Notes: generated by a model from the sequence alone, not told the origin. A stretch of DNA of 64,000 bases from Minisyncoccota bacterium (GCA_028718635.1 JAQULK010000001.1:543834-607833), one strand, 5' to 3'; positions 9,732 to 63,649 are shown, counted from the first letter of the stretch. Program-made: numbers and translations.

Positions 9732-9741
9732 CCCCCGGCAC

Positions 9742-16017: not shown

Positions 16018-17148
16018 CTATTTCTCGTGGCTTAAGGCTATGTCTACCAACTCCCTAGCTATTTTTTCTGCAGCACCTTCTTTCCCAAAAGCTTTTGCAT
16101 TCTCGGCCATTTTTTTATATCCTTCCTTGTCATTTATTATTCTTTCAATTTCTAAGCTTAAAATATTAGCTGTCATATTCTCCTCCTCAATAACACTGCA
16201 AGCTCCGGCTCGCGCATAACTAAAAGCATTTTTCCTGGAGTGGTCGGCGTTTGAATTTTTAAAAGGGACCAGGATCGATGGCACGCCCCAGGAAGCTATT
16301 TCGAACAAGGTTGACCCTGCGCGCGAAACGATAACCGTGGCAGCGCCAGCTACCATTTTCATTTGCAAAGGATTTAAAAAAGGAAGAGGCAAATACCTCG
16401 CTTTATTTTTTTCTTTTTCAAGAGCAACCTCGGACTGCCCTTTAACTGTCTTAAAATTTTTAATCCCTGTTTGATGAATAATTTGATAATTTTTTATTAA
16501 TTTTGGCAATGCATCTAAGACAACATTGTTTATAAGTTGTGCACCCTGAGAACCACCAAGTATGACAATTACAGGTATGGCCTCTTCTAATTTAAAATAT
16601 TCAAACGCTTCTTTTTGCGGTGCTTTATGTTCTATTTCGGTTCTTATCGGCTGGCCTGTCCAAGCAATGGTTTTTTTAGGAAAAAATGGGGCAGACTCCG
16701 CAAAAGACACAGCGACTTTTTCGGCAAAATGCCCGGCCCAAAGATTTACGCGTCCGGGAGCAGAGTCCGATTCATGGATCAAAACAGGAATGCGTAAAAT
16801 TCTGGCTGCAAAAATCGTCGGGAAAGATGCGTATCCGCCTTTTCCAAAAACCACATCCGGATAAATCGTAAATAATTTGTAAGTGGCATTAAGAATGCCA
16901 AAAAAAACCTTAAAAATATCAATAAAATTTTGGAATGAAAAATAGGTACGCATCTTTCCAGAAATTACTTCTTCAAAAAGAAGTTCATTTTCAACAAGCA
17001 TTTTTTTGTCGTAAGGGCTATCTGAAAAATAGTAAAGTTTTGCTCCAATGATGTGTTCGGAATCTACAATTTTATTAACTTTTTGAGCGACAGCGATTAA
17101 AGGATAAAAATGCCCTCCTGTCCCCCCGCCTGTAAAAACTATTTTCAT
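16018..17148 (-). CDS. murG: Undecaprenyldiphospho-muramoylpentapeptide beta-N-acetylglucosaminyltransferase
   Basis: MKIVFTGGGTGGHFYPLIAVA N-terminus and a GT28 C-terminal domain. Confidence 0.85.
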   Translation of the reverse strand: MKIVFTGGGTGGHFYPLIAVAQKVNKIVDSEHIIGAKLYYFSDSPYDKKMLVENELLFEEVISGKMRTYFSFQNFIDIFKVFFGILNATYKLFTIYPDVVFGKGGYASFPTIFAARILRIPVLIHESDSAPGRVNLWAGHFAEKVAVSFAESAPFFPKKTIAWTGQPIRTEIEHKAPQKEAFEYFKLEEAIPVIVILGGSQGAQLINNVVLDALPKLIKNYQIIHQTGIKNFKTVKGQSEVALEKEKNKARYLPLPFLNPLQMKMVAGAATVIVSRAGSTLFEIASWGVPSILVPFKNSNADHSRKNAFSYARAGACSVIEEENMTANILSLEIERIINDKEGYKKMAENAKAFGKEGAAEKIARELVDIALSHEK

Positions 17149-17182: not shown

Positions 17183-17216
17183 AGCGAGCCCTGCCTGCCG
17201 GCAGGCAGGGCTCGCT
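17183..17216. repeat. 34-nt perfect GC-rich palindrome AGCGAGCCCTGCCTGCCGGCAGGCAGGGCTCGCT (GGCAGGCAGG family)
   Basis: Read directly, intergenic between the Cys-rich gene stop and the murG start. Related copies at 31036, 41562, 53768 and 57932. Confidence 0.8.
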
Positions 17217-17222
17217 ACGGGA

Positions 17223-18974
17223 CTAGTATATTTCTTGCTGATAACACCTCTCACAATAAATAATTTCAGGACGTTCCGGAGCATAACTGGTCTCAAACTC
17301 TACAGGGCATTTACCTATATGGGTATGGGTAGTCTTTTCACACATGCAGGCTCTATGCCAAAGCTTTAAGGGATTCCTTTGTTTCAGTCTTTGGTAATGT
17401 CTGCAATTAGGACAGAGATGAGGTAAAGGTAGATTCATTCTTTGGTAGAATTGGAGTTCTGGAGCAATGATTTTGAAGGCTTCGGTGCATTGTTCATTGC
17501 ATTTGCCTTGATGTTCGCATTCTATGACTTTCCCTAGGATGGATTCATCTACGTCTTGGATGTTGTCCGGAATGTCTGTTGTTTTAATGTCTAGGGTATA
17601 GTTTCTTTCTTCTGCATCTTTCCATTGGTAACCTTGTTTTAAAGCTTCTTCTTTGGTTAAAGGAAAGTATTCTTGAGCGATGGTTTCGTTGTAACAGAAA
17701 GGGCTTAATTCTGTTGGAAAGAACTCTCCGTATTGGTAGATTCTGCCTTTGGTGTCTAGGTAGGGCATATCGTTCATGTGCTTGATGATTTTGGGGACTA
17801 GTTCTTCGTATTGTTCTTTGGTGTATTGGTGGTTGAGGATGCAGTAGGATTTGTTGCGGAGACCGACGCAGGCGAAGAGGTGGATAGATCCTGAACAATT
17901 TATAGAATAAGAAATATCACTACTGTCCTTTATAAAAAAACTAAATTTATAATCGGAATTTTCATTTGATTCAAAACCTAATGCAATAGTCTCATAGACT
18001 GATTCTGCTTTTGACATTCCATAATTGTCATAGCTATCTTTTACGCCAAGGACTGAATGTGTGGTGTATTTACTATTTTCAGAATCATTTCCCAATACAT
18101 CAAAACAATATTTACAATTTCTTGCATTCCTAATATTATTCCCTGTGCATTCTTTTGTATTAATTAAAAGAGAATGTCTGTGTATAGAATTAAGATATAA
18201 ATCTTTAAATTTATCTTTGTTTTTTTGCAAAGAATCATAACTACCTAAATTTAAATTCTGAATAGTTGCCAAATATTCTTCCCTCTTCATTTGTTTATTA
18301 AAAAAACAATATTGTTTATTCTTTAAATTAGTACATCCAAAACAGTTAGTGCAATTTTTACATTCGTATAAAAAATATGAATCAACGCAATTATCAGAAT
18401 TTTTACTAAAGAATAATCTGTTTGAATTCTCGCATTGAATATCCTCATAACAAAGTTCAAGTTTTTTAGAAATAGAAATGTCTAAGGAATCTTTCATGAA
18501 GGATGAGTTGCTGGAATATAAAACATTTTCATCGTTTTTACTTCCAAATAAGAGGTAACAATTTTTATTTTCAGCAGAAAAATTACAATAATCTGAATTT
18601 ACTGGATTAGTATTAAATAAACTCATTTGTGGAACTTTATTATATAAATCCTTTAGCTGAACGAAAAAATTTTTAGAAAAATCATAATCGCTTCCAAAAG
18701 AAAAAGGATCCCAAGAATCTCCCCACCAGCAATCCTGACAGAATACATTTATGGGACTTTCTTCTGCATAAATAGAAATAATAGTTTTTTTACAAAGATT
18801 GCATTTCCTTTTATACAAAGACCTTTCATTGCGAAAGTTCATCCTTTTGACCATCCGACATTCCGGACACCATGTAGGTGGAGGCACTTTTATTTTTTTA
18901 TAGAAATTAAAATCTTCCGGCTCGATTATGAAGTCTTTTTGACAATTTTGGCATACTTTAGTTTCCGAATCCAT
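17223..18974 (-). CDS. Cysteine-rich paralog family protein, copy 1 (583 aa), inserted between ftsW and murG
   Basis: Family signature: N-terminal CQNCKKDFxIEPEDFxFYxKIKVPPPTxCPECR, C-terminal LPLPxLCPNCRHYQRLKxRNPxKLWHRxCMCxK...CxVEFETSYAPxRPEIIYCExCYQQE(I/V)Y, and internal C-x2-C-x2-C-x2-C modules. Confidence 0.85.
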   Translation of the reverse strand: MDSETKVCQNCQKDFIIEPEDFNFYKKIKVPPPTWCPECRMVKRMNFRNERSLYKRKCNLCKKTIISIYAEESPINVFCQDCWWGDSWDPFSFGSDYDFSKNFFVQLKDLYNKVPQMSLFNTNPVNSDYCNFSAENKNCYLLFGSKNDENVLYSSNSSFMKDSLDISISKKLELCYEDIQCENSNRLFFSKNSDNCVDSYFLYECKNCTNCFGCTNLKNKQYCFFNKQMKREEYLATIQNLNLGSYDSLQKNKDKFKDLYLNSIHRHSLLINTKECTGNNIRNARNCKYCFDVLGNDSENSKYTTHSVLGVKDSYDNYGMSKAESVYETIALGFESNENSDYKFSFFIKDSSDISYSINCSGSIHLFACVGLRNKSYCILNHQYTKEQYEELVPKIIKHMNDMPYLDTKGRIYQYGEFFPTELSPFCYNETIAQEYFPLTKEEALKQGYQWKDAEERNYTLDIKTTDIPDNIQDVDESILGKVIECEHQGKCNEQCTEAFKIIAPELQFYQRMNLPLPHLCPNCRHYQRLKQRNPLKLWHRACMCEKTTHTHIGKCPVEFETSYAPERPEIIYCERCYQQEIY

Positions 18975-19000: not shown

Positions 19001-20101
19001 TTAATTTTTGCGCTGAAATTTTGATATATTAAGCACTATGCCTATAGCCATCATATAAACCATAAGTGAAGTGCCTCCTTGGCTCATAAACACTAATGGA
19101 ACTCCTGTTAAGGGAAAAACCCCAACCACAGAAGCAATATGCATAAATGATTGCGCTGTAATTAGTATAACAATTCCATAAACTAAAAGTCCACTAAAAG
19201 CATCTGGGGAGCGATTGGCAATACGAAAACCCCGTAAAATAAAAAATAAATAAAGAATTATCGTAAAGACTGATCCGACAAAACCTAATTCTTCGCCCAA
19301 AACAGCAAAAATAGAATCCCCTTGCGGCTCAGGAAGATAACTGAATTTTTGAATGCTTTGACCGAATCCACGCCCTATAATACCGCCAGACCCTAAGGCG
19401 ATGAGAGATTGCTGGATTTGATAGGAAGATCCTTGCGCATCCTGCGATGGATTTATAAAAGTTTTTACCCGTTCCTGCAGATAAGGCGTAAAATATACAA
19501 GGGTTCCGAGTAGCAGTGTCGCCCCTAAAATCGTGCCTATAATATATTTAACAGGAACGCTTGAAATAAAAAGCATCGACACTCCGGTAACAGTAATCAA
19601 GATAAAGCTTTTTGTATCCGGCTGTTTTAATAGAACCACAGCAATGACTGCGAGCATCACTAAGAATGGCAAAATTCCAAATTTAAAATCCTTGACTCTG
19701 CTTTTCGCCCACGACAGCCAAGCGGCAAAATAAATCACAAAAGCAAATTTTAAAAATTCAACAGGTTGGAATTTTAGCAGGCCTAGGTCGATCCATCTTT
19801 CTGCCCCTCCATGACTCCACCCAAGTGCAGGAATAAAAACCGACGCAGTCAATAATATTGATCCCAGAAAAATTATTAAGGAAAATCTGCGCCAAAATTT
19901 ATAATTAATCTTAGAACAAAAGTACATGCCCAGAAAACCAATACCAAGACCTAAAACTAGTTGGCTAAAAAGCACTGAATAAAAAGTTTTTTCATTTCTT
20001 GCTAAAACTCCGAGCGATGCTGAAATAAACATAGCCACTCCCAGCGCTAATAAAATAAATGTAATTATAAGAAAAAATTTATCGGCCTTTTTTTCTTTCA
20101 T
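19001..20101 (-). CDS. ftsW: SEDS-family peptidoglycan glycosyltransferase FtsW/RodA
   Basis: 366 aa polytopic membrane protein with SEDS conserved regions (GxxxNGAxRW-like GGAERWIDLG, PEPQGDSIFAVLGEELG). Confidence 0.8.
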   Translation of the reverse strand: MKEKKADKFFLIITFILLALGVAMFISASLGVLARNEKTFYSVLFSQLVLGLGIGFLGMYFCSKINYKFWRRFSLIIFLGSILLTASVFIPALGWSHGGAERWIDLGLLKFQPVEFLKFAFVIYFAAWLSWAKSRVKDFKFGILPFLVMLAVIAVVLLKQPDTKSFILITVTGVSMLFISSVPVKYIIGTILGATLLLGTLVYFTPYLQERVKTFINPSQDAQGSSYQIQQSLIALGSGGIIGRGFGQSIQKFSYLPEPQGDSIFAVLGEELGFVGSVFTIILYLFFILRGFRIANRSPDAFSGLLVYGIVILITAQSFMHIASVVGVFPLTGVPLVFMSQGGTSLMVYMMAIGIVLNISKFQRKN

Positions 20102-22941: not shown

Positions 22942-24705
22942 TTAATAAACTTCCTGTTGATAGCACTTCTCACAATAAATTATTTCTGGTCTATCTGGTG
23001 CATAACTCGTCTCAAATTCTACTTCGCATTTTCCTGCTCCATGAAAATGATTTTGTTTATCACACATGCAGACTCTGTGCCAAAGTTTCATTGGATTTTT
23101 TTGTTTCATTCTTTGATAGTGCCTACAGTTCGGACACAACCTAGGTAAAGGCAAATTCATTCTTTTGTAAAATTGCAAATCTTCAGGAAGAATTCTGAAG
23201 GCGGTCATACAATCCTCCTCGCACCCTCCTTCATGCTCACAGCCTATCACTTCTTCTAAAATTGAGTCCTCGACTTGTAGAATACTGTCCGGAAGTTCGT
23301 TCGATTTTTTTGTAATTTTATAATCTCTTTTTTCACGATCTTTCCAATTATAACCACTTGCTAGAGCTTTTTCTTTATTCAGAGGAAAATATTCTTGCGC
23401 AGTAGTTTCATTATAGCCATATGGTGAAAATTCTACAGGAAAAAATTCACCGTATTTATATACTCTTTCTTTTTTATCCATATAAGGCATATCATTCATA
23501 TGTTTGATTATTTTAGGAACCAGTTCTTCGTATTCTTCTTTTGTGTATTGCTTGTTTAAGATGCAATATTCCTTCTTTTTTAAACCAACGCAAGCAAAAT
23601 TATTTTCTCCTCCGACAACCCTGATGCTATAATCTATATTTCTCGAACTACTCCAAACTCCCCAACTATGCTTAATATTATATGTACCATTTCCACACTG
23701 AAGACATTCATATACAAGCTCAATATTATCTCCATAATGAGTAAAATCATAAGTAGTTCGTACTGGTCCATTTGAAACAAAAGAGCAAAATTTTGAATCT
23801 TCTGTATTTATGACGCAAAAACATTCTTTGGCATTTTTGGAATGTACTATATAGTCACCAGTCACATTTGAATTTTGAACACCAAAATAATATTTTTTAG
23901 GAAATTTTTTCCAAAACTTCTTAGCTTTTTCTTTCAATGCACTTATATTTTTATAAGAATCCAATCCGAAAGATTTTAATTTTTCTTCGTATTCTTCTTT
24001 GGTGTATGGGGCATTCCAAATGTGATAACTTTTTTTATGGAGATTTACACAACCAAAACAATTATTGCATCCGCGAAGACTATAAGAAAAATATACTTCC
24101 ACGCAATCTTCACAATTTTGAGAGAAAAAAGTCCGATAACAATTTACACTAGTTACTGTTTCATAACTAAGTTCTACTCTATCTACCATAGTAATGTCCT
24201 GCGAATCTTTTGAGTGGAAAACTCCGCTTCCGTAAGATATGTCTTCGTCAAAGGTTCCATCATGAAGCAAGTAACAATTTTTCATATCATTTGCCATATT
24301 GCAATACTGAGAATTAATCATAGTCATACTTATTGCGAAAAGATTACCAATGGGAACTTTAAGAAAAAGTTCAAAAATTTGATCAAAAAATGGTCTGGAA
24401 AAATCAATATCCATTGCATAATCAGAAGCATTCCAATCATCTCCCCACCAGCATTTATCGCAATATATAGTATCTTTTTTATAATCTTTGCTATAAATAG
24501 AAATTATTTTCTTTTTACACAAACCGCATTCTCTATAATGAAGACTCTTTTCATTGCGCCATGCTAAACGTCTTTGTAATCTACACTCTGGACAAAAAGT
24601 CGGCACCGGCACTTTTATTTTTTCATAAAATCCAAAATCATTCGGTTCTATTGCAAAGTCTTTTTTGCAATTTTGGCATATTTTGTTTTCTTTTTTATGT
24701 TCCAT
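22942..24705 (-). CDS. Cysteine-rich paralog family protein, copy 2 (587 aa)
   Basis: Same N- and C-terminal family signature; tandem with copies 3 and 4. Confidence 0.85.
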   Translation of the reverse strand: MEHKKENKICQNCKKDFAIEPNDFGFYEKIKVPVPTFCPECRLQRRLAWRNEKSLHYRECGLCKKKIISIYSKDYKKDTIYCDKCWWGDDWNASDYAMDIDFSRPFFDQIFELFLKVPIGNLFAISMTMINSQYCNMANDMKNCYLLHDGTFDEDISYGSGVFHSKDSQDITMVDRVELSYETVTSVNCYRTFFSQNCEDCVEVYFSYSLRGCNNCFGCVNLHKKSYHIWNAPYTKEEYEEKLKSFGLDSYKNISALKEKAKKFWKKFPKKYYFGVQNSNVTGDYIVHSKNAKECFCVINTEDSKFCSFVSNGPVRTTYDFTHYGDNIELVYECLQCGNGTYNIKHSWGVWSSSRNIDYSIRVVGGENNFACVGLKKKEYCILNKQYTKEEYEELVPKIIKHMNDMPYMDKKERVYKYGEFFPVEFSPYGYNETTAQEYFPLNKEKALASGYNWKDREKRDYKITKKSNELPDSILQVEDSILEEVIGCEHEGGCEEDCMTAFRILPEDLQFYKRMNLPLPRLCPNCRHYQRMKQKNPMKLWHRVCMCDKQNHFHGAGKCEVEFETSYAPDRPEIIYCEKCYQQEVY

Positions 24706-24735
24706 GGTCTAATCTGCTTTAGTTAAGTAAAGTAA

Positions 24736-26439
24736 TTAATACACTTCCTGTTGATAACATTTCTCGCAGTAAATAATCGGAGCGTAAGATTCATCATATA
24801 CTGTTTCAGCTTCTATATTGCATTTTGAACAAAAACGTTTTATTAATCTAAAAGGCGAACGTTTTGCTAAACGTCGCATATGCCTGATATAAAAACTCGC
24901 GTGTGGAAGAGGTAAATCCATTTTTCTATAAAATGAAAGTTCGTTCTCTGTTATTTTATATGCCCCTACAGATTTCGAATTATTTTTTTCTTCGCATTCT
25001 ATAATTTCCTTTAAAATTGAATCATCGGTTTCGCTAATGGTTTCAGGCAACTCTGAACTTTTAATCGTTGTTTTATAATTTTTTTCTTCTCTGTCCTTCC
25101 ATTTATACCCTTTTGCTAAAACCTCTTCTTTTGACAAAGGAAAGAAGTCTGCCGCTGCTGTCTCATTAAAAGCAAAATCAGAAAAAGAGTTTGGAAAATG
25201 TTCGCCAAATCGATACTCTAAACCTTGATCAAAATAAGGCATTTCTTTCATTTGTTTTATGATTTTTTCTTTCAGCACTTCATATTCCTCTTTATTATAC
25301 TTTTTATTCAAAATTGAGTACTCTCCTTTTTTTAAACCGACACATCCAAAACAATTCCGTGCCCCTGGACAGGAATTGCAATAATATAAATCCGAGGCTC
25401 CCATCCAACACTGAGTGCAAAAGTAAATTCTAGCGATATCTAGACCGCAGTTTTCTGATTCATATACTAGTTCAGCCTTATTCCCCCATTCAAAAAAATC
25501 CATGCAGTCTTCCAAGCCGAAAACCGAAAAAAGATACTTTCCATCTTTTACATTTACACAATCAAAAGATTGATGTACGTTTTTGCAGTTCGTAAACCAA
25601 TTGCCAGAAACATCACTAGATTTTATAGAAGCAACCGCTTTTTGAGGGAATTTTTTTCTAAATTCTTCAAATTTTCTATCCATTTCCTTAATGCCAGAAT
25701 AAGTGTTCAATTTAAGACCCTTTATCTTTTTAAAATATTCTTCTTTAGAATAAGCTTCGTTAAAAATATAAAATTCCTTATTATTCAAATTAACGCAACC
25801 TACACAATCAGAACAATTTCGGCAAGCATACAAAAACGAAGAATCCCTGCAATCATGGCTCTCCATACTAAACCTAAGGTTATAACAATTTCTGCAATTT
25901 ATACATTCATAACAAAGCTCGCTTTTGTCAGTCCAAGCGCAGTCGGAACAATCTCTTATGTTCTCGGCAATATAGCTATAAAAAGAATTTTCTGCATTGG
26001 TGGCTCTGAAAACCATATAGGAATTCCTTGGACTGGTAACACGATGAGTGTAAGGGCTATTGATCGCAAAACCCTGCCTGACAAGACTCATTCTCGGAAC
26101 CTTGTTTTGTAATTCCAAAAATTGTTCAAAGAATGGACGATTTTCGTCGTAATCCATTCCATATGAAGACGGATCCCATTTATCTGAATACCAAATATCT
26201 ATATCATAAACTGGAAATATCGTTTTCTCGGGATACATACTAAAAATTTCTTTGTTCGTAAAATCACATTTGCGCTTATAAAGAATAAGCTCATTGGTGC
26301 TCATTAGGCGTCTCATTAGCCTACACTGCGGGCAAAAAGTCGGTGGTGGTACTTTTATCTTTTCATAAAACCCAAAATCATCCGGCTCAATTACGAAATC
26401 TTTTTTACAATTTTGGCAAGTTTTAATTTCTTCTTTCAT
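24736..26439 (-). CDS. Cysteine-rich paralog family protein, copy 3 (567 aa, divergent C-terminus)
   Basis: N-terminal signature conserved (CQNCKKDFVIEPDDFGFYEKIKVPPPTFCPQCR); the C-terminus keeps ...SYAPIIYCEKCYQQEVY but lacks part of the CPNCRHYQR ribbon. Confidence 0.8.
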   Translation of the reverse strand: MKEEIKTCQNCKKDFVIEPDDFGFYEKIKVPPPTFCPQCRLMRRLMSTNELILYKRKCDFTNKEIFSMYPEKTIFPVYDIDIWYSDKWDPSSYGMDYDENRPFFEQFLELQNKVPRMSLVRQGFAINSPYTHRVTSPRNSYMVFRATNAENSFYSYIAENIRDCSDCAWTDKSELCYECINCRNCYNLRFSMESHDCRDSSFLYACRNCSDCVGCVNLNNKEFYIFNEAYSKEEYFKKIKGLKLNTYSGIKEMDRKFEEFRKKFPQKAVASIKSSDVSGNWFTNCKNVHQSFDCVNVKDGKYLFSVFGLEDCMDFFEWGNKAELVYESENCGLDIARIYFCTQCWMGASDLYYCNSCPGARNCFGCVGLKKGEYSILNKKYNKEEYEVLKEKIIKQMKEMPYFDQGLEYRFGEHFPNSFSDFAFNETAAADFFPLSKEEVLAKGYKWKDREEKNYKTTIKSSELPETISETDDSILKEIIECEEKNNSKSVGAYKITENELSFYRKMDLPLPHASFYIRHMRRLAKRSPFRLIKRFCSKCNIEAETVYDESYAPIIYCEKCYQQEVY

Positions 26440-26486
26440 TTTTTTTATATTATCACTTTATAACGGCCGTTAAATTTTGATAATGC

Positions 26487-28238
26487 TTAATACACTTCCT
26501 GCTGATAACATTTCTCGCAGTAAATTATTTCTGGCCTCTCTGGTGCATAGCTCGTCTCAAATTCGACATCGCACTTCTCTGTCCCATGAAAATGATTTTG
26601 TTTATCACACATGCAGACTCTGTGCCAAAGTCTCATGGGATTTCTGTATTTAAGCCTGCGTGCGTGTCTACAATTCAGACAAAGGTTCGGAAGCGGTAAA
26701 TTCATGCGTCGATAAAATTGCAACTCGGCTTGAATGATCTTAAATGCGCCAGTGCATTGATCATTGCAGTTGCCGTCATGTTCGCATTTTATGACTTCAT
26801 GTATAATATCATCCTGCACCTCTGAAATAGTATCGGGTAAATCGCTCACATTTTTTGTGATTTTATAATTTCTCTTTTCGGTTTCTCTCCACGAATATCC
26901 CAAAGCCAATGCTTGTTCTTTGGTCAATGGAAAGAATTCTTGAGCGGTGGTTTCATTGTAGGCAAAAGGACAAGTTTCTATCGGGAAAAATTCTCCATAT
27001 TTATATATCAGGCCTTGCTTGTCTGTGTAAGACATATCATTCATATGGTTTATAATTTGTTCTCTTAATTTAAAATATTCTTCTTTTTCATATTGCTTAT
27101 TGAAAATACAATATTGCTTTTTTCTTAAACCGACACAGCCGAAAATATCCTTTGAATTGACACAAAACATAGAATACTCCACATTTTGGCAATTTGTGAT
27201 TATCCAATGAGAGAATTTTATATTCGCGTTCTGGTCACCGCTTTGCAATGTCTCATACAATAGCGAGGATCCTTGGCCAAACGTGCTGTGGTCGTAAGCA
27301 TCGGTTAATTTTCCTGTTATAAAACTGCAAAATTTACTGTCTTCGATCTCAAAACCAATGAAGCAATTTTTTGCATTTTTTGTGTCGTTTAAATAATCGC
27401 CAGACGATCCGATATTTCGCCATCCATGATAAAATTTTTGAGGATAATTTTGCGACAAAGATTCGACTTTCTCTTGTGCTGTTTTTATCTTTTTTAATGA
27501 ACTTGGGTATAGTTCTGCTAATTTCTTATTATAATCTTCCTTGGAATACTGTTCATTAAAAATGCAATAACTTTTTTTATTTAAATTTATACAGCCGAAA
27601 CAATCATTGCACCCTGAGCAATTTTTAGAAAACATAACATTATGGCAACTATCGCAATCAATACTGAAAAATGTATTGTAGCATCGATTGCAATTCATAG
27701 TTTCATAGCAAAGCTCGCAATGGTTCGCCATTAAATTATCCACGCTGTCCTTGCTATGATTCACGAAACTACCATAAATCAAATTTTCTCCATAATCAGA
27801 ATAAGTAACCATGTATGAATTTTTTTGCCAAGCAGACATGTTGACGTATTCAGTATTAATCCAAGTCGAATACAATCCATATAAATTCATTATGGGAACT
27901 CTGTGATACAGATCATTTATTTGCGAAATTACATTCTGTTTTGGATTAAAATCAACTCCATAATCTATCGCGTCCCAGTCATCTCCCCACCAGCACGAAG
28001 TACAATAAACATGAATTCCAGAATCTTCTGCAAAGATAGCAATCGTCTTTTTATCGCATTTTTCACATATTCGATGATGGAAAGTTCTTTCGTTTCTTCG
28101 AGCCAGCCGACGTATCAAACGGCACTCAGGGCAAAAAGTCGGCAGTGGCACGTTCATTTTTTCATAAAATCCAAAATCATCTGGCTCAATCGTAAAGTCT
28201 TTTTTACAGTTTTGGCAAGTTTTAATTTCTTGATTCAT
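26487..28238 (-). CDS. Cysteine-rich paralog family protein, copy 4 (583 aa)
   Basis: Full family signature at both termini. Confidence 0.85.
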   Translation of the reverse strand: MNQEIKTCQNCKKDFTIEPDDFGFYEKMNVPLPTFCPECRLIRRLARRNERTFHHRICEKCDKKTIAIFAEDSGIHVYCTSCWWGDDWDAIDYGVDFNPKQNVISQINDLYHRVPIMNLYGLYSTWINTEYVNMSAWQKNSYMVTYSDYGENLIYGSFVNHSKDSVDNLMANHCELCYETMNCNRCYNTFFSIDCDSCHNVMFSKNCSGCNDCFGCINLNKKSYCIFNEQYSKEDYNKKLAELYPSSLKKIKTAQEKVESLSQNYPQKFYHGWRNIGSSGDYLNDTKNAKNCFIGFEIEDSKFCSFITGKLTDAYDHSTFGQGSSLLYETLQSGDQNANIKFSHWIITNCQNVEYSMFCVNSKDIFGCVGLRKKQYCIFNKQYEKEEYFKLREQIINHMNDMSYTDKQGLIYKYGEFFPIETCPFAYNETTAQEFFPLTKEQALALGYSWRETEKRNYKITKNVSDLPDTISEVQDDIIHEVIKCEHDGNCNDQCTGAFKIIQAELQFYRRMNLPLPNLCLNCRHARRLKYRNPMRLWHRVCMCDKQNHFHGTEKCDVEFETSYAPERPEIIYCEKCYQQEVY

Positions 28239-47356: not shown

Positions 47357-49105
47357 CTAATACACCTCCCCCTGATAACATTTCTCACAATAAATAATTT
47401 CAGGACGTTCCGGAGCATAACTGGTCTCAAACTCTACAGGGCATTTACCTATATGGGTATGGGTAGTCTTTTCACACATGCAGGCTCTATGCCAAAGCTT
47501 TAAGGGATTCCTTTGTTTCAGTCTTTGGTAATGTCTGCAATTAGGACAGAGATGAGGTAAAGGTAGATTCATTCTTTGGTAGAATTGGAGTTCTGGAGCA
47601 ATGATTTTGAAGGCTTCGGTGCATTGTTCATTGCATTTGCCTTGATGTTCGCATTCTATGACTTTCCCTAGGATGGATTCATCTACGTCTTGGATGTTGT
47701 CCGGAATGTCTGTTGTTTTAATGTCTAGGGTATAGTTTCTTTCTTCTGCATCTTTCCATTGGTAACCTTGTTTTAAAGCTTCTTCTTTGGTTAAAGGAAA
47801 GTATTCTTGAGCGATGGTTTCGTTGTAACAGAAAGGGCTTAATTCTGTTGGAAAGAACTCTCCGTATTTATATACTCTACCCTTTGCATCAATGTAGGGC
47901 ATGTCGTTCATGTGCTGGATGATTTTGGGGACTAGTTCTTCGTATTGTTCTTTGGTGTATTGGTGGTTGAGGATGCAGTAGGATTTGTTGCGGAGGCCGA
48001 CGCAGCCAAATAAATTCGAGCAATTATAACAAATAACAGAATACTGCACATTTTGCGATTCTCTTATCTCGACTGAAAAATTTATTTTAGAAGAAGAAAC
48101 TCCTGCGGCAACACTTTCGTAAATAAGTTCACCACCTACTCCACAAGCAATCCCATCATACATATCTCGCACACCACCTCCTAGCCAAAAAGCAAATTTA
48201 CTATCTTCATTTTTTCCATCTACACAGTCAAAAATATATTTGCAGTTTTTGGCGTCTATAATATAGTCCCCGGTAGTGTTTTGCATGCGTACAAAAGAAG
48301 CAAATTTCTTCGGAAGTTTTAATTTTAAGTCTTCAAATTCTTTTTTGTTTTTAATCAAATTACTGTAATTACCTAATTTTAGCCTATCTATTTCTTTAAT
48401 ATAATCGTCTTTCGTATAGGCAATGTTAAAAACATGATACTGTTTATTTCGCAACCCAACACAACCGAAGCAATTTGAACAATTTTTGCAATCATACATT
48501 AAAAATGATTCCACGCAATTTGAACAATTTTCTCCAAAAAATAATTTATATGAATTTTGACAATTTATGTTTTCATAACAGAATTCGACTTTATCAGTAA
48601 AATAAATATCCACAGAATCTCTAGAACTAAAAGGACGATTACCATAAATAATATTTTCTCCCCATCCGCCACCAAAAGTTAAGTAACAGTTCTTGCTGTC
48701 ATCCATCCAATTTACATATTCACAATTTACATTGTTTTTATTGGTTAGATTGCTTCTGGGAACTTTTAGAAATAAATCATTGAACTGTTCGAAAAAAGTC
48801 TTGGAAAAATCATAATCTCTGCCAAAATCCATCGGTGACCAAGAATCTCCCCACCAATATTTTTGATCATACACTACTCCGCTGCCTGGTGAATAAGCAG
48901 AAAATATTTGTTCTTCGTGGCCTAAGGCATCACATTTTCTCTTATATAAAGTTCTCTCATTCCTAAAATTCATCCGTCTTACCATACGGCAAGACCAACA
49001 CCAGGTCGGGGCTGGAACCTTCATTTTTTTATAAAAACTAAAATCGTCAGAATCAATGGTGAAGTCTTTTTTACAGTTTTGACAGATTTTTGTTTGTGGC
49101 GCCAT
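47357..49105 (-). CDS. Cysteine-rich paralog family protein, copy 5 (582 aa), immediately downstream of dnaJ
   Basis: Full family signature. The C-terminal ~205 aa are virtually identical to copy 1. The start codon is 2 nt after the dnaJ stop. Confidence 0.85.
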   Translation of the reverse strand: MAPQTKICQNCKKDFTIDSDDFSFYKKMKVPAPTWCWSCRMVRRMNFRNERTLYKRKCDALGHEEQIFSAYSPGSGVVYDQKYWWGDSWSPMDFGRDYDFSKTFFEQFNDLFLKVPRSNLTNKNNVNCEYVNWMDDSKNCYLTFGGGWGENIIYGNRPFSSRDSVDIYFTDKVEFCYENINCQNSYKLFFGENCSNCVESFLMYDCKNCSNCFGCVGLRNKQYHVFNIAYTKDDYIKEIDRLKLGNYSNLIKNKKEFEDLKLKLPKKFASFVRMQNTTGDYIIDAKNCKYIFDCVDGKNEDSKFAFWLGGGVRDMYDGIACGVGGELIYESVAAGVSSSKINFSVEIRESQNVQYSVICYNCSNLFGCVGLRNKSYCILNHQYTKEQYEELVPKIIQHMNDMPYIDAKGRVYKYGEFFPTELSPFCYNETIAQEYFPLTKEEALKQGYQWKDAEERNYTLDIKTTDIPDNIQDVDESILGKVIECEHQGKCNEQCTEAFKIIAPELQFYQRMNLPLPHLCPNCRHYQRLKQRNPLKLWHRACMCEKTTHTHIGKCPVEFETSYAPERPEIIYCEKCYQGEVY

Positions 49106-51849: not shown

Positions 51850-53586
51850 TTAATATACCTCCTGCTGATAGCATTTTTCACAATACACTATCTCAGGCCG
51901 ATCTGGAGCATAACTCGTCTCAAATTCTACTTCGCATTTTTTAGTTCCGTGAGAATGATTGGTCTTGTCGCACATACACTGCCTGTGCCAAAGTTTTAAT
52001 GGATTAACTTTTTTAAATCTCTCCTGATGCCTGCACTCAAAACATTTTCTAGGCAATGGCAACTTAAATTTTTTCAAAAAAAGATATTCGTTTTGAATAA
52101 TTTTATAAGGTCTTTTGCAGGAAGCGCATTCAATAACTAAATTAATGATATCCTCCTCAGTATTATTGATATGATCTGGTAAATCCTTCGCTTCACAAGT
52201 AGCACTGTATTCTGGTTTGGCCTTCTCGATATAGTTGTAACCTTCATTTAAAATATTTTCCTTAGAAAATGGAAAATAATCTTGCGCAACGGTTTCATTA
52301 TAACCAAAAGGAGAAAGCTCTATTGGAAAATATTCACCATAAGAATATGAATTCCCCTTTTTATCAAAATAAGGCACCTTCGCCATCTGCTCAATAATCT
52401 GTAACCGTAATTCTTCAAATTTTTCTTTAGAATACTGTTTGTTAAAAATACAATAACTTTTATTTCGAAGACCTACACAACCAAAAATATTATTACAACC
52501 ATGACAATTAAAACAATATTCAGCATTTAAACACTCCCAAACTGTTAAGGTGAATAATTGTCTAGACCCATAAACCCCAGAATCCATAGCCTCATAAATC
52601 AATTCTGATTTTTCTCCCGTACCATAAGCGTCATAACTATCTTTTTCACCATTAACCGCGTTAATCACATATTTACAATCTTTCATATCATCTTGAATGG
52701 CAAAGCAATGATGACAATTTTTGGCATGAAAAATATCATCTCCAGAAACATCGACAGAATTTATAATGTTAGCAAATCTTCTGATGGTCTTTAATTTTAG
52801 CTTTTCAAATTCTTCGCTTACTTTTTTAAAATTTTCAAAATTTCCGAGATCTAATTCTTTAAGCTTTTTATCGTACTCTTCTTTGGTCAATTGAACATTC
52901 CACATACAATTAGACTTATTGCGGAGACCAGTGCAACCAAAACAATTTATGCAGTTTTTGCAATCGTAAAGAAAATATGAGCTAGTGCAAGAGTCTGCAT
53001 TATGAGAAAAAAAGGTTTCATAACATTTCAAGGAAGAAACATCTTCATAACAGAATTCGCAATCCTTTACTGTAAACATATCCATGCAATCTTTGCAGGA
53101 ATTGGCGCGCGAGGAATAAGAAATATTCTCGCCTATCCAAGATGCCGATACAAGAAAGGAATTTCTGAATTCGCCGATATAATTGCCATAGGAAGTATTG
53201 ACGCATCTTCCGATAAAAAGGTTTGGTTGAGGAGTTTTTTCCAACAACTCTCGAAATTGCTCAAAGAATAGCCTATTAAAATCATATTCTAAACCATAGT
53301 CCAAAGGATCCCACTCATCGCTCCACCAGATATCTCTCTCATAAATAGTAAATGGGGAATCCGATGAAAAACAACTGATCAGACTCTTGCCAGTTTTTGC
53401 GCATTTATTCCTGTGCAACGCACGTTCGTTTCGCCAAGCAAAACGCCTTTGCATTCGACAATCAGAACAAAAAGTAGGCGGTGGCACTTTTATTTTTTCG
53501 TAAAAATTAAAATCTTCTTGTTCTATCAGAAAATTTTGTTTACAATTTTGACAATTTTTTGTTTCTGCATTCATAAAATTTCTCAA
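51850..53586 (-). CDS. Cysteine-rich paralog family protein, copy 6 (578 aa), between the two ATPase paralogs
   Basis: Family signature at both termini (CQNCKQNFLIEQEDFNFYEKIKVPPPTFCSDCR ... CEVEFETSYAPDRPEIVYCEKCYQQEVY). Confidence 0.85.
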   Translation of the reverse strand: MRNFMNAETKNCQNCKQNFLIEQEDFNFYEKIKVPPPTFCSDCRMQRRFAWRNERALHRNKCAKTGKSLISCFSSDSPFTIYERDIWWSDEWDPLDYGLEYDFNRLFFEQFRELLEKTPQPNLFIGRCVNTSYGNYIGEFRNSFLVSASWIGENISYSSRANSCKDCMDMFTVKDCEFCYEDVSSLKCYETFFSHNADSCTSSYFLYDCKNCINCFGCTGLRNKSNCMWNVQLTKEEYDKKLKELDLGNFENFKKVSEEFEKLKLKTIRRFANIINSVDVSGDDIFHAKNCHHCFAIQDDMKDCKYVINAVNGEKDSYDAYGTGEKSELIYEAMDSGVYGSRQLFTLTVWECLNAEYCFNCHGCNNIFGCVGLRNKSYCIFNKQYSKEKFEELRLQIIEQMAKVPYFDKKGNSYSYGEYFPIELSPFGYNETVAQDYFPFSKENILNEGYNYIEKAKPEYSATCEAKDLPDHINNTEEDIINLVIECASCKRPYKIIQNEYLFLKKFKLPLPRKCFECRHQERFKKVNPLKLWHRQCMCDKTNHSHGTKKCEVEFETSYAPDRPEIVYCEKCYQQEVY

Positions 53587-58456: not shown

Positions 58457-60184
58457 CTAGTATATCTCCTGCTGGTAGCATTTCTCGCAATAAACTATTT
58501 CCGGACGGTCGGGCGCATAACTGGTCTCAAATTCAACTTCGCATTTGCCTTTATGATTTGAATGATTTTCTTTATCGCACATGCACTGTCTTTTAAAAAA
58601 AATAGGTGGATTTCGCAACTTTAAACGTTCATAATGTCTGCAATTAATACATAAACGAGGCAATGGAAGGTTCATTCTTTTTAAGAAATCAAATTCTGTT
58701 TTAATTATGCGAAAAGCCTTCGTACATTCATGTTGACAATTTCCTTTATGAGCACATTCAATAGATTGATTCAAGATGTTCTCATCAATTTCTTTTATGT
58801 TATCTGGAATATCTTCATTTATTAATGTAATTTTATAATTTTGCTTTGAAGTTTCATACCACAAAAACCCTTTACTTTTCGCTTTTTCTTCACTTAAAGG
58901 AAAAAATTCATATGCTTGAGTAGCGTTGTACGGAAAAAAGGAAAATTTACTCGGAAAAAATTCTCCGTATTCACTTGTTTCTTTCATGTGTTTAATTATT
59001 AGAGGCACTATTTTTTCATATTCTTCTTTGGTGTATTGCTTGTTGAAGATGCAATATTGTTTATTTTTTAACGAAACACACCCAAAAAGATCTGACGAAC
59101 TACTACAGAAAACACAGTAAGTCAAATTCCTTACATTCGGATAACAGTAAGCACTGAATTTAATATTCGAACTTCCATCACCAACAATAAGACTTTCATA
59201 AATAAGCTCTGCATTTTCTCCATAATTAGAATAATCGTAACAATCTTTCACTGGACCACTTAAAATATTTTGAACGAATTTACTATCTTCCACCGTCCTA
59301 ACACGAAAACAATATTTTGCGTTTTTAGACCCATAGACATAATCACCGGAAACATTCATATTTTGACGGTCATGGATATATTTTTGAGGATAATTAAGCC
59401 AATGCTTATAAGCTTTGTCGCGTAAGATTTCAAAAGCTTTGTTGGAGCCCAAGTTAAATTCTGCAACTTTTTTTAAATATTCTTCTCTTGAATATTGTTT
59501 ATTAAAAATACAATATGATTTATTGCGAAGATTAATTGACCCTAAACAACTATTGCATCCAATACAATCTTTACAGAAAATCATTTCTTGGCAACTTTCA
59601 CAATCAACTGAAAAAAATGTTTTGTAACAAGTTGTTGTATTAACATTTCCATAACTTAATTCACATTTAGTTGTCATGTGACTGTCAAAGGATTGTTTAG
59701 AACCCGTGTCCCAAATAAGATAAGCGGAATCTTCCGTATAAGACGCTCCTCGAACGAGATAGCAATTTTTGCAGCTATGATTATTTGAACAATAATAACA
59801 ATTCACCATATTGTACATAGAATGTACAGGTAGTGGTACTTTATAAAGCAAATCTTTAAACTGTTCAAAAAATGGTTTTGAAAAATTATACTCTTGACCA
59901 TATTCCAAAGGATTCCAAGCATCAGAAATCCAATAATCCCGATCATATATTTTATAAGTGTTTTCTTCAGGGAAAAGTGAGAAAATTTCTTCCCCATTTA
60001 GAGCTTCCTTTTTCTTGAATAAATGCCAATCATTACGCCAAGCCATACGTCTTTGCAACCTGCATTCTGGACAAAAAGTAGGCGGTGGAACCTTTATCTT
60101 TTCATAAAAGTTAAAATCTCCCGACTCTATCGTGAAATCTTTTTGGCAATTTTGGCATATTTTGTTTTCACTGTTACTTTCCAT
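58457..60184 (-). CDS. Cysteine-rich paralog family protein, copy 7 (575 aa)
   Basis: Family signature (CQNCQKDFTIESGDFNFYEKIKVPPPTFCPECR ... CEVEFETSYAPDRPEIVYCEKCYQQEIY). Confidence 0.85.
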   Translation of the reverse strand: MESNSENKICQNCQKDFTIESGDFNFYEKIKVPPPTFCPECRLQRRMAWRNDWHLFKKKEALNGEEIFSLFPEENTYKIYDRDYWISDAWNPLEYGQEYNFSKPFFEQFKDLLYKVPLPVHSMYNMVNCYYCSNNHSCKNCYLVRGASYTEDSAYLIWDTGSKQSFDSHMTTKCELSYGNVNTTTCYKTFFSVDCESCQEMIFCKDCIGCNSCLGSINLRNKSYCIFNKQYSREEYLKKVAEFNLGSNKAFEILRDKAYKHWLNYPQKYIHDRQNMNVSGDYVYGSKNAKYCFRVRTVEDSKFVQNILSGPVKDCYDYSNYGENAELIYESLIVGDGSSNIKFSAYCYPNVRNLTYCVFCSSSSDLFGCVSLKNKQYCIFNKQYTKEEYEKIVPLIIKHMKETSEYGEFFPSKFSFFPYNATQAYEFFPLSEEKAKSKGFLWYETSKQNYKITLINEDIPDNIKEIDENILNQSIECAHKGNCQHECTKAFRIIKTEFDFLKRMNLPLPRLCINCRHYERLKLRNPPIFFKRQCMCDKENHSNHKGKCEVEFETSYAPDRPEIVYCEKCYQQEIY

Positions 60185-60230
60185 TTTTGAAATTTCTTAG
60201 TCTATCATATATGATATGCTAATTAAATAT

Positions 60231-61973
60231 TTAATATATCTCCTGTTGATAACACCGTTCACAGTATACAGTCTCTGGTCGGTCCGGAGCATAGTTCGTT
60301 TCAAATTCTATCTCGCATTTGCCTTTGTGATTTGAATGGTTTTCTTTGTCGCACATACATTCACGTTTATAAAGTCTTGGTAAGGGTAATTGTATAAATC
60401 TTTTGTAATGACGACAATTAGAACAAAGAACAGGAAGCGGTATATTGTGTTTCTTATAAAATTTTAGCTCATAATCCGTCAAACGAAAAGCTACATTACA
60501 ATGATGGTCACACCTCCCTGCATGAGCACATCCTAAAACTTCTTTCAAAATTTCATCATTTACTTCGACTATATTGTCTGGAATTTTTTCTGTTGGTATA
60601 CTAATTTTAAAATTTTTAACAATAGATTCGCGCCAAGTATAACCTTTTTTTGCTGCTTCCTCCTCTGTGATAGGAAAAAATTCCTGAGCTATAGTTTCGT
60701 TGTATCCCCAAGGAGAAAGTTCTACTGGAAAAAATTCACCATATCTATAAATCCTTCCCACCTTATCCACAAAAGGCACATTTTCCATTTGTTTTATGAT
60801 CTCCTCTCGAAGTTTATTAAATTCTTCTTTTGAATAAACCCTGTTTAAAATTGCATTTTCTTTGTTTTTTAGACCGGTACAACCAAATATATCATTGCAA
60901 TTGGCACAAAAATCAACATAATCCGCATCTCGCACAGAGTTATTGGCAGAATGGGAAAACTTTACATTGTAATCGTCTAAGGAACCTGTCACATACTCAT
61001 ACATCATCTCTGACCATCCGCTATAAGTAAAATCCATACAATCTTTTGCAACCAGAGTTCTATAGCCATATTTTACATTTTCCACATCCTCTGAATTAAA
61101 ACAATTTTTACAATTTTTCACATTGGAAAGATTATTTCCTGTAGAATTTACTGAACGAATGATGTTAGCAAAACGATAAATAGCTCTTTGCTTTATCTCT
61201 TCGAATTCCTTGATTAAGATTTCACGCGAAGCCCTGCTTTGTAAATTTAATTTCTTTATCTCTTTTAAATATTCTTCTTTTGAATATTGTTTGTTGCGAA
61301 TATAAAATTCTTTATTGCGCAAATTATAAGAAAGTAAGCAGTTACTACAATTTACACAATCAACCAAAAAATAAGAATCCAAACAATTTCTAGACAATAA
61401 AACGTGCTGGCAATTATAGTTTTTTTCTCCTTCAATATTCTCATATAAACTTTGTCCTTCCTTCATATTTGCGCAATCAATAATATCGCTGGACTTGTCT
61501 ACTGTTGTTGAATAAAAAACATTTTCTGACCCTTTAACGACAGAAACAGATAAGTAAACATTTCTTGATTCCCCAACATAGTTCGAATAATCAGAATTAA
61601 TAGAATTTCTCTGCCAAAGAGCTAACCTTGGTACAGTTTCAAGCAATTCTTTAAATTGTTCAAAAAAAGATCTAGAAAAATCATAACCCCGTCCAAAAGT
61701 AGTAGCTTCCCACGCGTCTCCATGCCAACATTCCCTACAGTAGACAGGAAAGGACACAAATTCAGCATACATTGAAATAATATTTTTTTTACACAGACTG
61801 CAGTCACGACGATACAATACCCTCTCATTACGCCAAGCAAGACGCCTAATAAATCTGCATTCCGGACAAAAAGTAGGAGGCGGTACTTTTATTTTTTCAT
61901 AAAAATTAAAATCTTCTGCCTCTATGATGAAGTCTTTCTTACAGTTTTGACAAATTTTAATTTCTTGTTTCAT
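60231..61973 (-). CDS. Cysteine-rich paralog family protein, copy 8 (~580 aa)
   Basis: Family signature. The start is trimmed to the internal MKQEIKICQNCKK Met (61973), 2 nt after the upstream copy's stop. Confidence 0.8.
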   Translation of the reverse strand: MKQEIKICQNCKKDFIIEAEDFNFYEKIKVPPPTFCPECRFIRRLAWRNERVLYRRDCSLCKKNIISMYAEFVSFPVYCRECWHGDAWEATTFGRGYDFSRSFFEQFKELLETVPRLALWQRNSINSDYSNYVGESRNVYLSVSVVKGSENVFYSTTVDKSSDIIDCANMKEGQSLYENIEGEKNYNCQHVLLSRNCLDSYFLVDCVNCSNCLLSYNLRNKEFYIRNKQYSKEEYLKEIKKLNLQSRASREILIKEFEEIKQRAIYRFANIIRSVNSTGNNLSNVKNCKNCFNSEDVENVKYGYRTLVAKDCMDFTYSGWSEMMYEYVTGSLDDYNVKFSHSANNSVRDADYVDFCANCNDIFGCTGLKNKENAILNRVYSKEEFNKLREEIIKQMENVPFVDKVGRIYRYGEFFPVELSPWGYNETIAQEFFPITEEEAAKKGYTWRESIVKNFKISIPTEKIPDNIVEVNDEILKEVLGCAHAGRCDHHCNVAFRLTDYELKFYKKHNIPLPVLCSNCRHYKRFIQLPLPRLYKRECMCDKENHSNHKGKCEIEFETNYAPDRPETVYCERCYQQEIY

Positions 61974-61975
61974 TT

Positions 61976-63649
61976 TTAAGCAATATTCTGCTTGTAACAT
62001 TCTTCGCAAGCGATTTTCTGATATCCCCACTCTGGCAAATAATACGCTTCAACTTCTTTTTCGCAATAAAAACACTTATACGGATATGCTTGCAAAACGG
62101 TCAAGTATTTCAAACTATTTTTTATACGCACGTCAAAATGACGACGCGGAAGCGGAATATTGTTCTCTCTATAAAAAGAGAGTTCGTTTTGGGCAATATT
62201 AAAACGCCAGCCTGTCTCCGGGCATATGAGCGCTTGAGTAATAATGGTATCTGGTACATCTTTTATGTCATCAGGCAATTCGCTTGTAGGCATTCCATCT
62301 ATATGATTCTCTATGATATCTTCCCAATAACCTCCAAGTTTTAAAATATCTTCTTTTTTTGTATCTGGAAAATATAAAAAGCTTGTTGAAAAATTGAAAG
62401 GTCCTGCGCTCATAGCGTAAGGTAAAAACTTTCCATATTCTCCCCTCTTTTTCATATCAGAAACTATTTCATCTTTTAGTTTTTCATACTCTTCCTTGTC
62501 ATACTGTTTATTTAAAATGCAATATTTTTTCTTCTTGAGTCCAACACAACCAAAACAATATTCACATTCAAAACAAATGTCTAAATATTCAGAATACCTG
62601 GAAGGAGACCAACTCGAATATTTGAGAGAATAACTATTTCCTTGACAGGCGCTGCAATTACCAGACAATTCCAAAAACTGACAACCATTAGAATCAATAC
62701 TTGATTTTAATTCTTGCCCTCTGATACAATTTGATAAATCTTCAGAAGTTTGTATCGTATTACAATTGTGACAATTTTTTACATCTAATAAATAATTTCC
62801 ATCTGAATTATGTGTTTTTAGATTAAAATTTGGCCTGTGAACTACCTCTTTTATAATTATTTCCTCAAAACGTCTTTTATATTTTTGGATAGAACCATAG
62901 GAACCTAAATTAAATGATTTTATTTTTTTTTCATATTCCTCTTTAGAATACTGAACATTTTCTATGCAATGAGATTTGTTGCGTAAATTCCAACACATAA
63001 AACAGTTTTGGCAATTTCGACAATCGTATAAAAATCTAGAGTCTATGCAATCACGAGAATGTTTGGAATAAAAAAGTTTATAAGAGTTAAAGCAATCTGA
63101 GGAATCATAACTTTTTTCGCAAAAAAAACCAACAATCATATCAAAAGAATTCTTTACTCCTATATTTCTATATGAATAATACAAATCTTCACAATCCACC
63201 ATCGAACGAGATAAATAACAATTTTTTGAATTCCAAACATCATCGCACCAATCACAACCAGTATTCTTTATACCTCCTTGGTGTGGGTGAGGAATTTTTT
63301 CTTGAAGTTCTTGTAATTGCTCAAAAAAAGGCTTACTAGAATTATAATCCATTCCATAATCCATCGCGTCCCATTTGTCGCTGTACCATTCGTTTAAAGT
63401 ATAGATCGGGTATCTGCTTTTTTCCGGCAAAACAGTGATCAAGCTCTCTCCTGAAAGGTCTGATTTGCCTTTGCGGAATTTTCCAAACATCCAAAAAGAT
63501 AAATGTAATTTTACTCGACAGAAAAAACAAAGCGTTGGCAGTTCAATATCAACTTTTTTATATAAAGATAATTCCTCTTCTGTAATTGTGAAGTCTTGCT
63601 GGCAGTGTTCACAAATTTTATGTTGCTGATTCTTTGTATTCATATACAT
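61976..63649 (-). CDS. Cysteine-rich paralog family protein, copy 9 (557 aa, most divergent member)
   Basis: Recognisable but diverged termini (ICEHCQQDFTITEEELSLYKKVDIELPTLCFFCR ... CFYCEKEV...IACEECYKQNIA) and the same C-x2-C module architecture. Its start overlaps the grpE 3' end. Confidence 0.75.
   Translation of the reverse strand: MYMNTKNQQHKICEHCQQDFTITEEELSLYKKVDIELPTLCFFCRVKLHLSFWMFGKFRKGKSDLSGESLITVLPEKSRYPIYTLNEWYSDKWDAMDYGMDYNSSKPFFEQLQELQEKIPHPHQGGIKNTGCDWCDDVWNSKNCYLSRSMVDCEDLYYSYRNIGVKNSFDMIVGFFCEKSYDSSDCFNSYKLFYSKHSRDCIDSRFLYDCRNCQNCFMCWNLRNKSHCIENVQYSKEEYEKKIKSFNLGSYGSIQKYKRRFEEIIIKEVVHRPNFNLKTHNSDGNYLLDVKNCHNCNTIQTSEDLSNCIRGQELKSSIDSNGCQFLELSGNCSACQGNSYSLKYSSWSPSRYSEYLDICFECEYCFGCVGLKKKKYCILNKQYDKEEYEKLKDEIVSDMKKRGEYGKFLPYAMSAGPFNFSTSFLYFPDTKKEDILKLGGYWEDIIENHIDGMPTSELPDDIKDVPDTIITQALICPETGWRFNIAQNELSFYRENNIPLPRRHFDVRIKNSLKYLTVLQAYPYKCFYCEKEVEAYYLPEWGYQKIACEECYKQNIA

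Follow-up and report, generated by a model that had tools for sequence, protein, structure and literature searches.

How do two anciently separated genes come to share one nearly identical domain? This question is raised by a 64,000-nucleotide (nt) stretch of DNA from a Minisyncoccota bacterium (GCA_028718635.1 JAQULK010000001.1:543834-607833), which we call the window. The host is a Candidatus Pacebacteria/Paceibacterota metagenome-assembled genome (MAG) of the candidate phyla radiation (CPR), with a genome of at least ~0.67 Mb. Nine minus-strand paralogs of a cysteine-rich protein family, c1 to c9, are found in the window. They encode 557-599 amino acids (aa), and all of them are full-length open reading frames (ORFs) with start codons. 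They take up 15.7 kb in total (24.5% of the window), and their pairwise nt identity is 48-62%, with the exception of the pair c1 and c5. Toward their 3' ends, these two genes share a near-identical block. We consider it highly probable that this block arose recently by ectopic (interlocus) gene conversion, in a non-reciprocal homologous recombination between c1 and c5. The features concerned are as follows.

17223..18974, minus strand: paralog c1, 583 aa, between murG and ftsW
47357..49105, minus strand: paralog c5, 582 aa, starting 2 nt past the dnaJ stop
17249..17871, minus strand: probable converted tract, c1 copy (C-terminal domain), 609/623 match to 47383-48005
47383..48005, minus strand: probable converted tract, c5 copy, from the ungapped comparison and BLASTN
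17735..17783, minus strand: divergent island in the tract, c1 version, GC-ending codons, ..LDTKGRIYQY.., 13 mismatches in 49 nt
47869..47917, minus strand: divergent island in the tract, c5 version, AT-ending codons, family-consensus ..IDAKGRVYKY..

The tract shared by c1 and c5

In ungapped register (offset 30134), positions 17249-17871 of c1 and 47383-48005 of c5 are identical at 609 of 623 positions, or 97.8%, and the longest perfect run extends over 486 nt (17249-17734). BLASTN gives 97.5% identity across 634 nt. Thus, the near-identical block of ~620 bp that had been noticed in an earlier sequence-only reading of the window is confirmed, with its second copy beginning at 47383 and not at 47384. 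Both copies are in frame on the minus strand, in the same orientation and 30.1 kb apart, and they correspond to codons 368-575 of the ~583-aa genes. The block had been taken to encode the last ~205 aa of each protein. However, the 26 nt between the tract and the stop codon (17223-17248) carry seven mismatches, so the tract is internal to the coding sequence. On the 5' side the tract begins inside the conserved CVGLRNK motif, and on the 3' side it ends 26 nt short of the stop codon. On both sides of both copies the identity drops to about 50-65%. In global alignments of the extended regions, the two genes are ~50-78% identical outside the tract (mean 59%), and the sequences downstream of the genes are ~45-60% identical. 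The upstream cores are therefore not unrelated, as had been claimed, but homologous, with 47% aa and 59% nt identity.

Even against a generous background identity of 0.72, the binomial chance of finding at least 609 matches in 623 positions is 3e-67. Where both genes encode the same amino acid within the tract, 199 of 207 codons are identical (0.96), compared with 0.49 in the family background (P = 4e-50). For the N part of c1 and c5 the count is 97 of 173 (0.56), and the saturated background of all other pairs is 0.57. Inside the tract, the synonymous sites are homogenized like the non-synonymous ones. A GENECONV-like permutation test over the 36 paralog pairs finds a run of 333 consecutive variable sites shared by c1 and c5 (p <= 0.0005), and this is the only pair with a globally significant result.

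The 14 mismatches within the tract are strongly clustered (P < 1e-11). Eleven are found in 17735-17759 and single ones at 17769, 17783 and 17862. The single divergent patch of ~50 nt described previously accounts for 13 of them, which fall within 49 nt, while the mismatch at 17862 stands isolated outside it. Within this island c1 and c5 are 73% identical, which is the level that either of them has against unrelated paralogs there. Because the divergence is equal to that of unrelated paralogs, the island is sequence of different ancestry and not the result of accumulated mutation. The c1 island has the GC-ending codon style of the remaining block, and its IYQY is common only to a third paralog, P0054 (P-numbers denote family proteins found in our searches). 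The c5 island codons GTA TAT AAA TAC are present also in c2, P0002, P0004 and P0081. A c2-like donor for the c5 island was considered and rejected: the 17-nt match is at background, and the identity of 0.73 is equal to that of c1 against c5. A diversity-generating retroelement with a template repeat and a variable repeat was also rejected. The mismatches hit all base classes (G, T and A on one strand) and are not restricted to template adenines, and there is no reverse transcriptase among the 20 neighboring genes scanned.

History and recurrence of the shared domain

The N parts of c1 and c5 have separate orthologs in other genomes. That of c1 is nearest to P0002 (78% aa identity), P0003 and P0004 (the three spanning 78-72%), and that of c5 to P0049, P0081 and L083 (72% aa identity), where L-numbers denote loci fetched from other genomes and metagenomes. 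Since the N parts have separate orthologs elsewhere, the split between c1 and c5 is old. Between the two proteins, aa identity is 47% in the N part and 96% in the C part. The C part of c1 and c5 has at most 85% aa identity to anything outside this genome, and the closest external DNA to the block is 82% identical. Block-type C-domains elsewhere are attached to many N-part orthogroups, and show 78-82% nt identity to the block regardless of the N part.

A third paralog, P0054 (PHT16_00530, MDD5720925.1), is encoded in this genome outside the window. In a protein-level comparison its C part is 92% identical in aa sequence. It shares with c1 and c5 several genome-specific residues, namely the H in ILNHQY, APELQFYQRMNLPLPH and WHRACMCEKTTHTHIGKCP, the last of which lies in a 75-residue stretch that is identical in all three proteins. 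P0054 is also a mosaic, which has K..RIYQY in common with c1 and the QGEVY tail in common with c5. Because P0054 shares the genome-specific residues and is mosaic, the C-domain appears to evolve in concert among at least three loci (c1, c5 and P0054).

Shared tracts are found in other genomes as well. Our recurrence sample consisted of 162 loci fetched from other genomes and metagenomes, of which 82 have at least two family genes. In seven of these 82 multi-paralog loci, different paralogs share tracts of at least 80 nt at 88% identity or more, mostly in the first or last ~45 codons, which are the two Zn modules. The clearest case is a Paceibacterota MAG (L022, JBBABV010000001.1), where 8333-8826 matches 11117-11610 over 494 nt with three mismatches and a perfect run of 408 nt. 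This tract starts at codon 371/373, with the same 5' edge as in c1 and c5, and it is an independent event of the c1/c5 kind in another genome. The proposal of the sequence-only reading that members of the family recombine, by gene conversion or in segments, is thus well supported for c1 and c5, and such recombination recurs in L022.

A further observation comes from the c5 orthogroup. In L081, L082 and L083, nt identity is 80% between the N parts but no more than 73-74% between the C parts. From the conservation of the C-domain the opposite would be expected, which suggests that the C-domain was replaced repeatedly as the family evolved.

One of the two blocks could have been made or misplaced by the metagenome assembler, through repeat collapse, a strain chimera or a wrong path through the repeat. 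The source is indeed a MAG contig (671,958 bp), and a perfect repeat of 486 nt is longer than a short read. However, collapse or copying of a repeat would have left two identical sequences, whereas the two copies differ at 14 positions, including the 49-nt island, and each of them is in frame and bordered on either side by unique sequence. A wrong path may swap flanks, but it cannot create identity from sequences that are ~70% alike. Since P0054 also shares the domain at 92% aa identity, and an equivalent tract is present in the independently assembled genome L022, we regard an assembly artefact as very unlikely.

The direction of transfer can be argued both ways. The c1 island has the GC-ending codon style of the block and the same IYQY as P0054, which suggests that c5 was the recipient of the block, with a patch of the original c5 sequence left in place. 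On the other hand, the c5 island resembles the family consensus, and c5 and its ortholog P0049 are collinear, suggesting that the block is native to c5 and that c1 later swapped a short patch with the P0054 lineage. The nt identity of c5 to P0049 is 0.75 in the N part and 0.83 in the C part, the best external match to the block. The orthologs of c1 (L079 and L080) and of c5 (L081-L083) pointed neither way.

Two points thus count against gene conversion between c1 and c5. Both copies are known from the assembly alone, and the evidence on polarity is contradictory, with the c1 island and P0054 seeming to favor one donor and the collinearity of c5 with P0049 the other. Nevertheless, we favor gene conversion. 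The C-terminal domain of one copy (codons 368-575) would have been overwritten by that of the other. The exchange would have begun and ended in the most conserved domain, where the identity between paralogs may be enough for strand invasion in a RecA-type mechanism. The island could be a patch left unconverted, by patchy heteroduplex repair or template switching, or it could be a second, short conversion. In this way the C-domain would remain concerted across at least three paralogs and may be functionally interchangeable among them, while the N-terminal and central parts would stay paralog-specific.

The protein family and its other members in the window

The proteins encoded by c1 and c5 are identical to the database entries MDD5721397.1 (PHT16_03050, 583 aa) and MDD5721427.1 (PHT16_03205, 582 aa), respectively. 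The family has more than 7,000 matches, all of them named 'hypothetical', in Paceibacteria, Nomurabacteria, Staskawiczbacteria and their relatives. A profile search gives 5,231 cluster representatives at 50% identity, 2,306 of which have E <= 1e-30. Searches in Pfam, NCBIfam, PADLOC, PHROGs and the PDB sequences returned no meaningful family for the paralogs. Each protein has 31-37 Cys residues, and no signal peptide or transmembrane segment is predicted in the products (maximum KD19 1.41 or less). Judged by these sequences, this is a large, uncharacterized family of probably cytoplasmic, Cys/Zn-rich proteins of Paceibacteria.

Internal duplication is evident in the proteins. Their N-terminal and C-terminal Zn modules (residues 2-83 and ~486-578) are similar to each other with E = 8e-14, and the two central Cys-laddered halves are alike with E = 2e-10, each ending in CxxCFGCxxLRNKxYCIxNxxYxKEEY. 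Against the Pfam models zf_Tbcl (PF13451) and zf_Tbcl_2 (PF23477), c1, c5 and c2 have no match at E <= 1. Of 40 members, 13 match PF13451 and 5 match PF23477, all below the gathering threshold and with a best E of 3e-4, and we would describe the likeness of the terminal modules to a treble-clef zinc finger as a resemblance only. An AlphaFold2 model is confident as a whole, with a predicted local distance difference test score (pLDDT) of 84 and a predicted template modeling score (pTM) of 0.85. The pLDDT is 57-70 in the central repeats and 85-98 in the C-terminal 230 residues. In a Foldseek search against the PDB nothing was significant. Since ~16 of the 21 top matches were left-handed beta-helices (E >= 1.8, template modeling score <= 0.23), this hexapeptide-repeat fold was considered for the central Cys-laddered repeats, and it was rejected for want of a significant structural match.

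The tract (residues 368-575) covers the end of the second central repeat (CVGLRNK-YCILN-QYTKEEY), a helical or alpha-beta region and the C-terminal Zn module. In an alignment of 120 sequences, most of the nearly invariant columns fall in the C-domain. The exchanged segment is therefore the most conserved domain of the family, with its 5' junction in an invariant motif. In the part that matches the tract, the other seven paralogs of the window have 64-72% nt identity. These paralogs, together with the exact runs found between some of them, are listed here.

22942..28238, minus strand: tandem array of c2 (22942-24705), c3 (24736-26439) and c4 (26487-28238), with gaps of 30 and 47 nt
51850..53586, minus strand: paralog c6, between two TrwB/VirD4-like ATPase genes
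58457..63649, minus strand: tandem array of c7 (58457-60184), c8 (60231-~61973) and c9 (61976-63649)
23039..23086 and 26584..26631, minus strand: 48-nt exact run shared by c2 and c4, global permutation p 0.02-0.06
23000..23032 and 51908..51940, minus strand: 33-nt exact run shared by c2 and c6, global p 0.01-0.04

Both exact runs are of marginal significance, with global p values between 0.01 and 0.06. The c2/c4 run had already been noticed and exists, though it is 48 and not 46 nt long. It is possibly a short or old conversion tract, and is part of the last ~135 nt of the two genes, which are 81-89% identical. The first ~135 nt of c3 and c4 are 87-91% identical. Among the paralogs of the window, no tracts are found in the variable N-terminal and central parts.

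The paralogs lie among housekeeping genes, some of them dispersed and others in tight tandem arrays. Around c1 are murG (16018-17148) and ftsW (19001-20101), in a dcw-type cluster that includes mraY, and c4 follows scpA/scpB. The genes dnaJ (49107-50225) and dnaK (55855-57759) are parted by c6 and by the ATPase genes at 50241-51755 and 53648-55792. The larger of these TrwB/VirD4-like coupling ATPases has a PF23477 treble-clef finger and the C-terminal repeat SP(I/V)GGLQPREV. For c8, the mechanical ORF begins with the GTG at 62030, which gives an overlap of 55 nt with c9, and the alignment of the paralogs suggests that its true start is an ATG near 61973 (MKQEIK...), directly past the c9 stop. 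The most divergent paralog is c9 (61976-63649), with 48-51% nt identity and with several C-terminal Cys/His residues missing. It alone has a clear PHROG match (phrog_15341, of unknown function, E = 1.5e-7), in the central repeat. RecR is also encoded in the 64-kb window.

Several small repeats are found between the genes. A perfect 32-nt GC-rich palindrome at 17184-17215 (GCGAGCCCTGCCTGCC followed by GGCAGGCAGGGCTCGC) lies 8 nt past the c1 stop with no T-run after it, and could be a terminator-like or repetitive extragenic palindromic (REP)-like hairpin in an otherwise AT-rich genome. An 81-nt intergenic repeat at 12460-12540 and 43803-43883 (84% identical) lies each time 3' of a plus-strand gene, in the second case recR, and holds the hairpin GGATTTTTnGAAGCTTnAAAAATCC and a GC-rich tail. 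Two further intergenic pairs, 440-498/40419-40477 and 26418-26477/47288-47347, are 73-75% identical and lie 3' of minus-strand genes. The second pair is just past the c4 and c5 stops and has the palindromic core AACGGCCGTT. Promoter and terminator scans gave signals at the level of shuffled sequence, and a single tRNA gene (9657-9740) is the only Rfam match in the window.

Cassette systems of antigenic variation such as pilE/pilS, vlsE/vls and msp2 have multiple related copies and unidirectional segmental transfer. For the present family a mosaicism in donor-cassette style was proposed, which would mean a system in which silent donors feed an expressed copy to diversify a variable protein. The resemblance is in the multiple related copies, which are many, partly in tandem and fill about a quarter of the window, and in the segmental transfer, with mosaic patches and short shared runs between several pairs. 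However, all nine copies are intact and full-length and have their own start codons, so there are no silent truncated donors, and there is no single expression site. The copies lie in or beside the dcw, scpAB and dnaK/dnaJ clusters, and their products have no signal peptide or transmembrane segment. Moreover, it is a conserved domain that is exchanged, which homogenizes and does not diversify, and the variable N-terminal and central parts have no tracts. We therefore find a cassette system highly improbable here.

The block was also described as GC-richer than the rest of either gene, and this is correct. Its GC content is 0.41 and its GC content at third codon positions (GC3) is 0.43, whereas GC3 is 0.23 and 0.27 in the N parts of c1 and c5 and 0.24-0.37 in the C parts of the remaining seven paralogs. 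The block lies above all of the 37 other genes of the window, for which the mean GC3 is 0.321 (standard deviation 0.043, maximum 0.391). In 180 family genes from other genomes, the GC3 of the C part minus that of the N part tends to be larger the more closely the C part resembles the block (Spearman 0.49, p = 2e-12). Genes with at least 75% aa identity to the C-domain of the block have an excess of +0.124, which is positive in 16 of 16 genes, while the family-wide mean difference is +0.011 +/- 0.068. The L022 tract has no such excess. We thus rejected the GC excess as a product of the c1/c5 event, since it is a graded trait of the C-domain type across genomes. GC-biased conversion is a possible cause. 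As in bacterial GC-biased gene conversion (PMC4450053), GC3 in the window peaks in the recombining segment, and the excess scales with membership in the block-type C-domain class. Unlike in that process, the excess here predates the event and is not seen in the L022 tract.

The foreign-looking GC3 of the block, which exceeds that of every other gene in the window, would also be explained if the C-domain were a self-propagating (homing-type) or horizontally imported module, copied from an outside donor or by its own nuclease activity. One type of C-domain is indeed joined to many N-part orthogroups. The Zn module also has a weak structural similarity to a phage zinc-ribbon protein, the best Foldseek match in BFVD (E = 0.01), and to further zinc-ribbon and HNH proteins (E = 0.3 or weaker), none of which is significant. 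However, there is no significant nuclease or Pfam match beyond the treble-clef hits below threshold, and the closest external DNA is just 82% identical. In addition, the GC3 excess is graded across many genomes and absent from the L022 tract. A mobile or imported module is thus a most doubtful explanation.

The weakest alternative dispenses with recombination, through extreme purifying or codon-level selection or through a recent whole-gene duplication with fast divergence of the N part, and though no part of the family is as conserved as the C-domain and block-type C-domains elsewhere are 78-82% identical whatever their N part, we find it scarcely credible, because same-aa codon identity is ~0.49 in all other pairs and 0.96 here, the other seven paralogs at 64-72% nt identity are free to vary in this domain, the separate N-part orthologs make the c1/c5 split old, the island is at background divergence, and there is no Rfam hit in support of constrained synonymous sites.

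Relation to known systems and significance

Gene conversion between paralogs is a textbook process, of which the c1/c5 tract is a new example. Surveys exist of interlocus gene conversion among bacterial paralogs and of their concerted evolution (PMC6053082, PMC8022953), with tufA/tufB and the rRNA operons as examples. As in conversion of the tufA/tufB type, a near-identical tract is bounded by diverged flanks, the paralogs are more alike than orthologs, and the transfer is non-reciprocal with both loci intact. However, here a single domain of a multi-domain protein is homogenized. This occurs in at least three of ten or more old, saturated paralogs of a family of unknown function, in a CPR genome of ~0.67 Mb.

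Segmental conversion is also a feature of the outer-membrane paralogs of Helicobacter pylori (babA/babB and other Hop genes). In Mycobacterium tuberculosis it is found in the PE/PPE genes (PMC13061034, PMC12046097). Like the present paralogs, both are expanded families with mosaic patches, in which conserved terminal segments are concerted and the middle or N-terminal parts are distinct. Unlike them, the c1-c9 family has no export signal and lies amid housekeeping genes, whereas the Hop and PE/PPE proteins are secreted or exposed on the cell surface and face pressure from host immunity. Our literature searches found no account of gene conversion in CPR/Patescibacteria, nor of the c1-c9 family.

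The findings indicate that diverged repeats actively undergo homologous recombination in a CPR genome that is reduced and very small. They also draw attention to a very large family that has no Pfam model and whose domain logic combines a variable N-terminal and central part with a concerted C-domain. Conversion tracts of this kind are a caution for MAG assembly and for ortholog calling in the family. The link of GC3 excess to C-domain type offers a lead on biased conversion in bacterial genes (PMC4450053) that can be tested. The family itself and the GC3 pattern of its concerted C-domain are more interesting leads than the conversion event.

Finally, the domain logic may reflect a modular system that is specific to the CPR, an idea that we put forward as a speculation with a small chance of being right. 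In such a system, recurrent intragenomic conversion would keep one constant C-terminal Zn-binding domain alike in many paralogs, while the Cys-laddered repeats of the N-terminal and central parts would diverge to form recognition surfaces particular to each paralog. The result would be an intracellular receptor or adaptor family with a variable head and a common tail. If this is true, the C-domain would be a long-term recombination hot spot in these bacteria, with a GC3 footprint compatible with GC-biased conversion.

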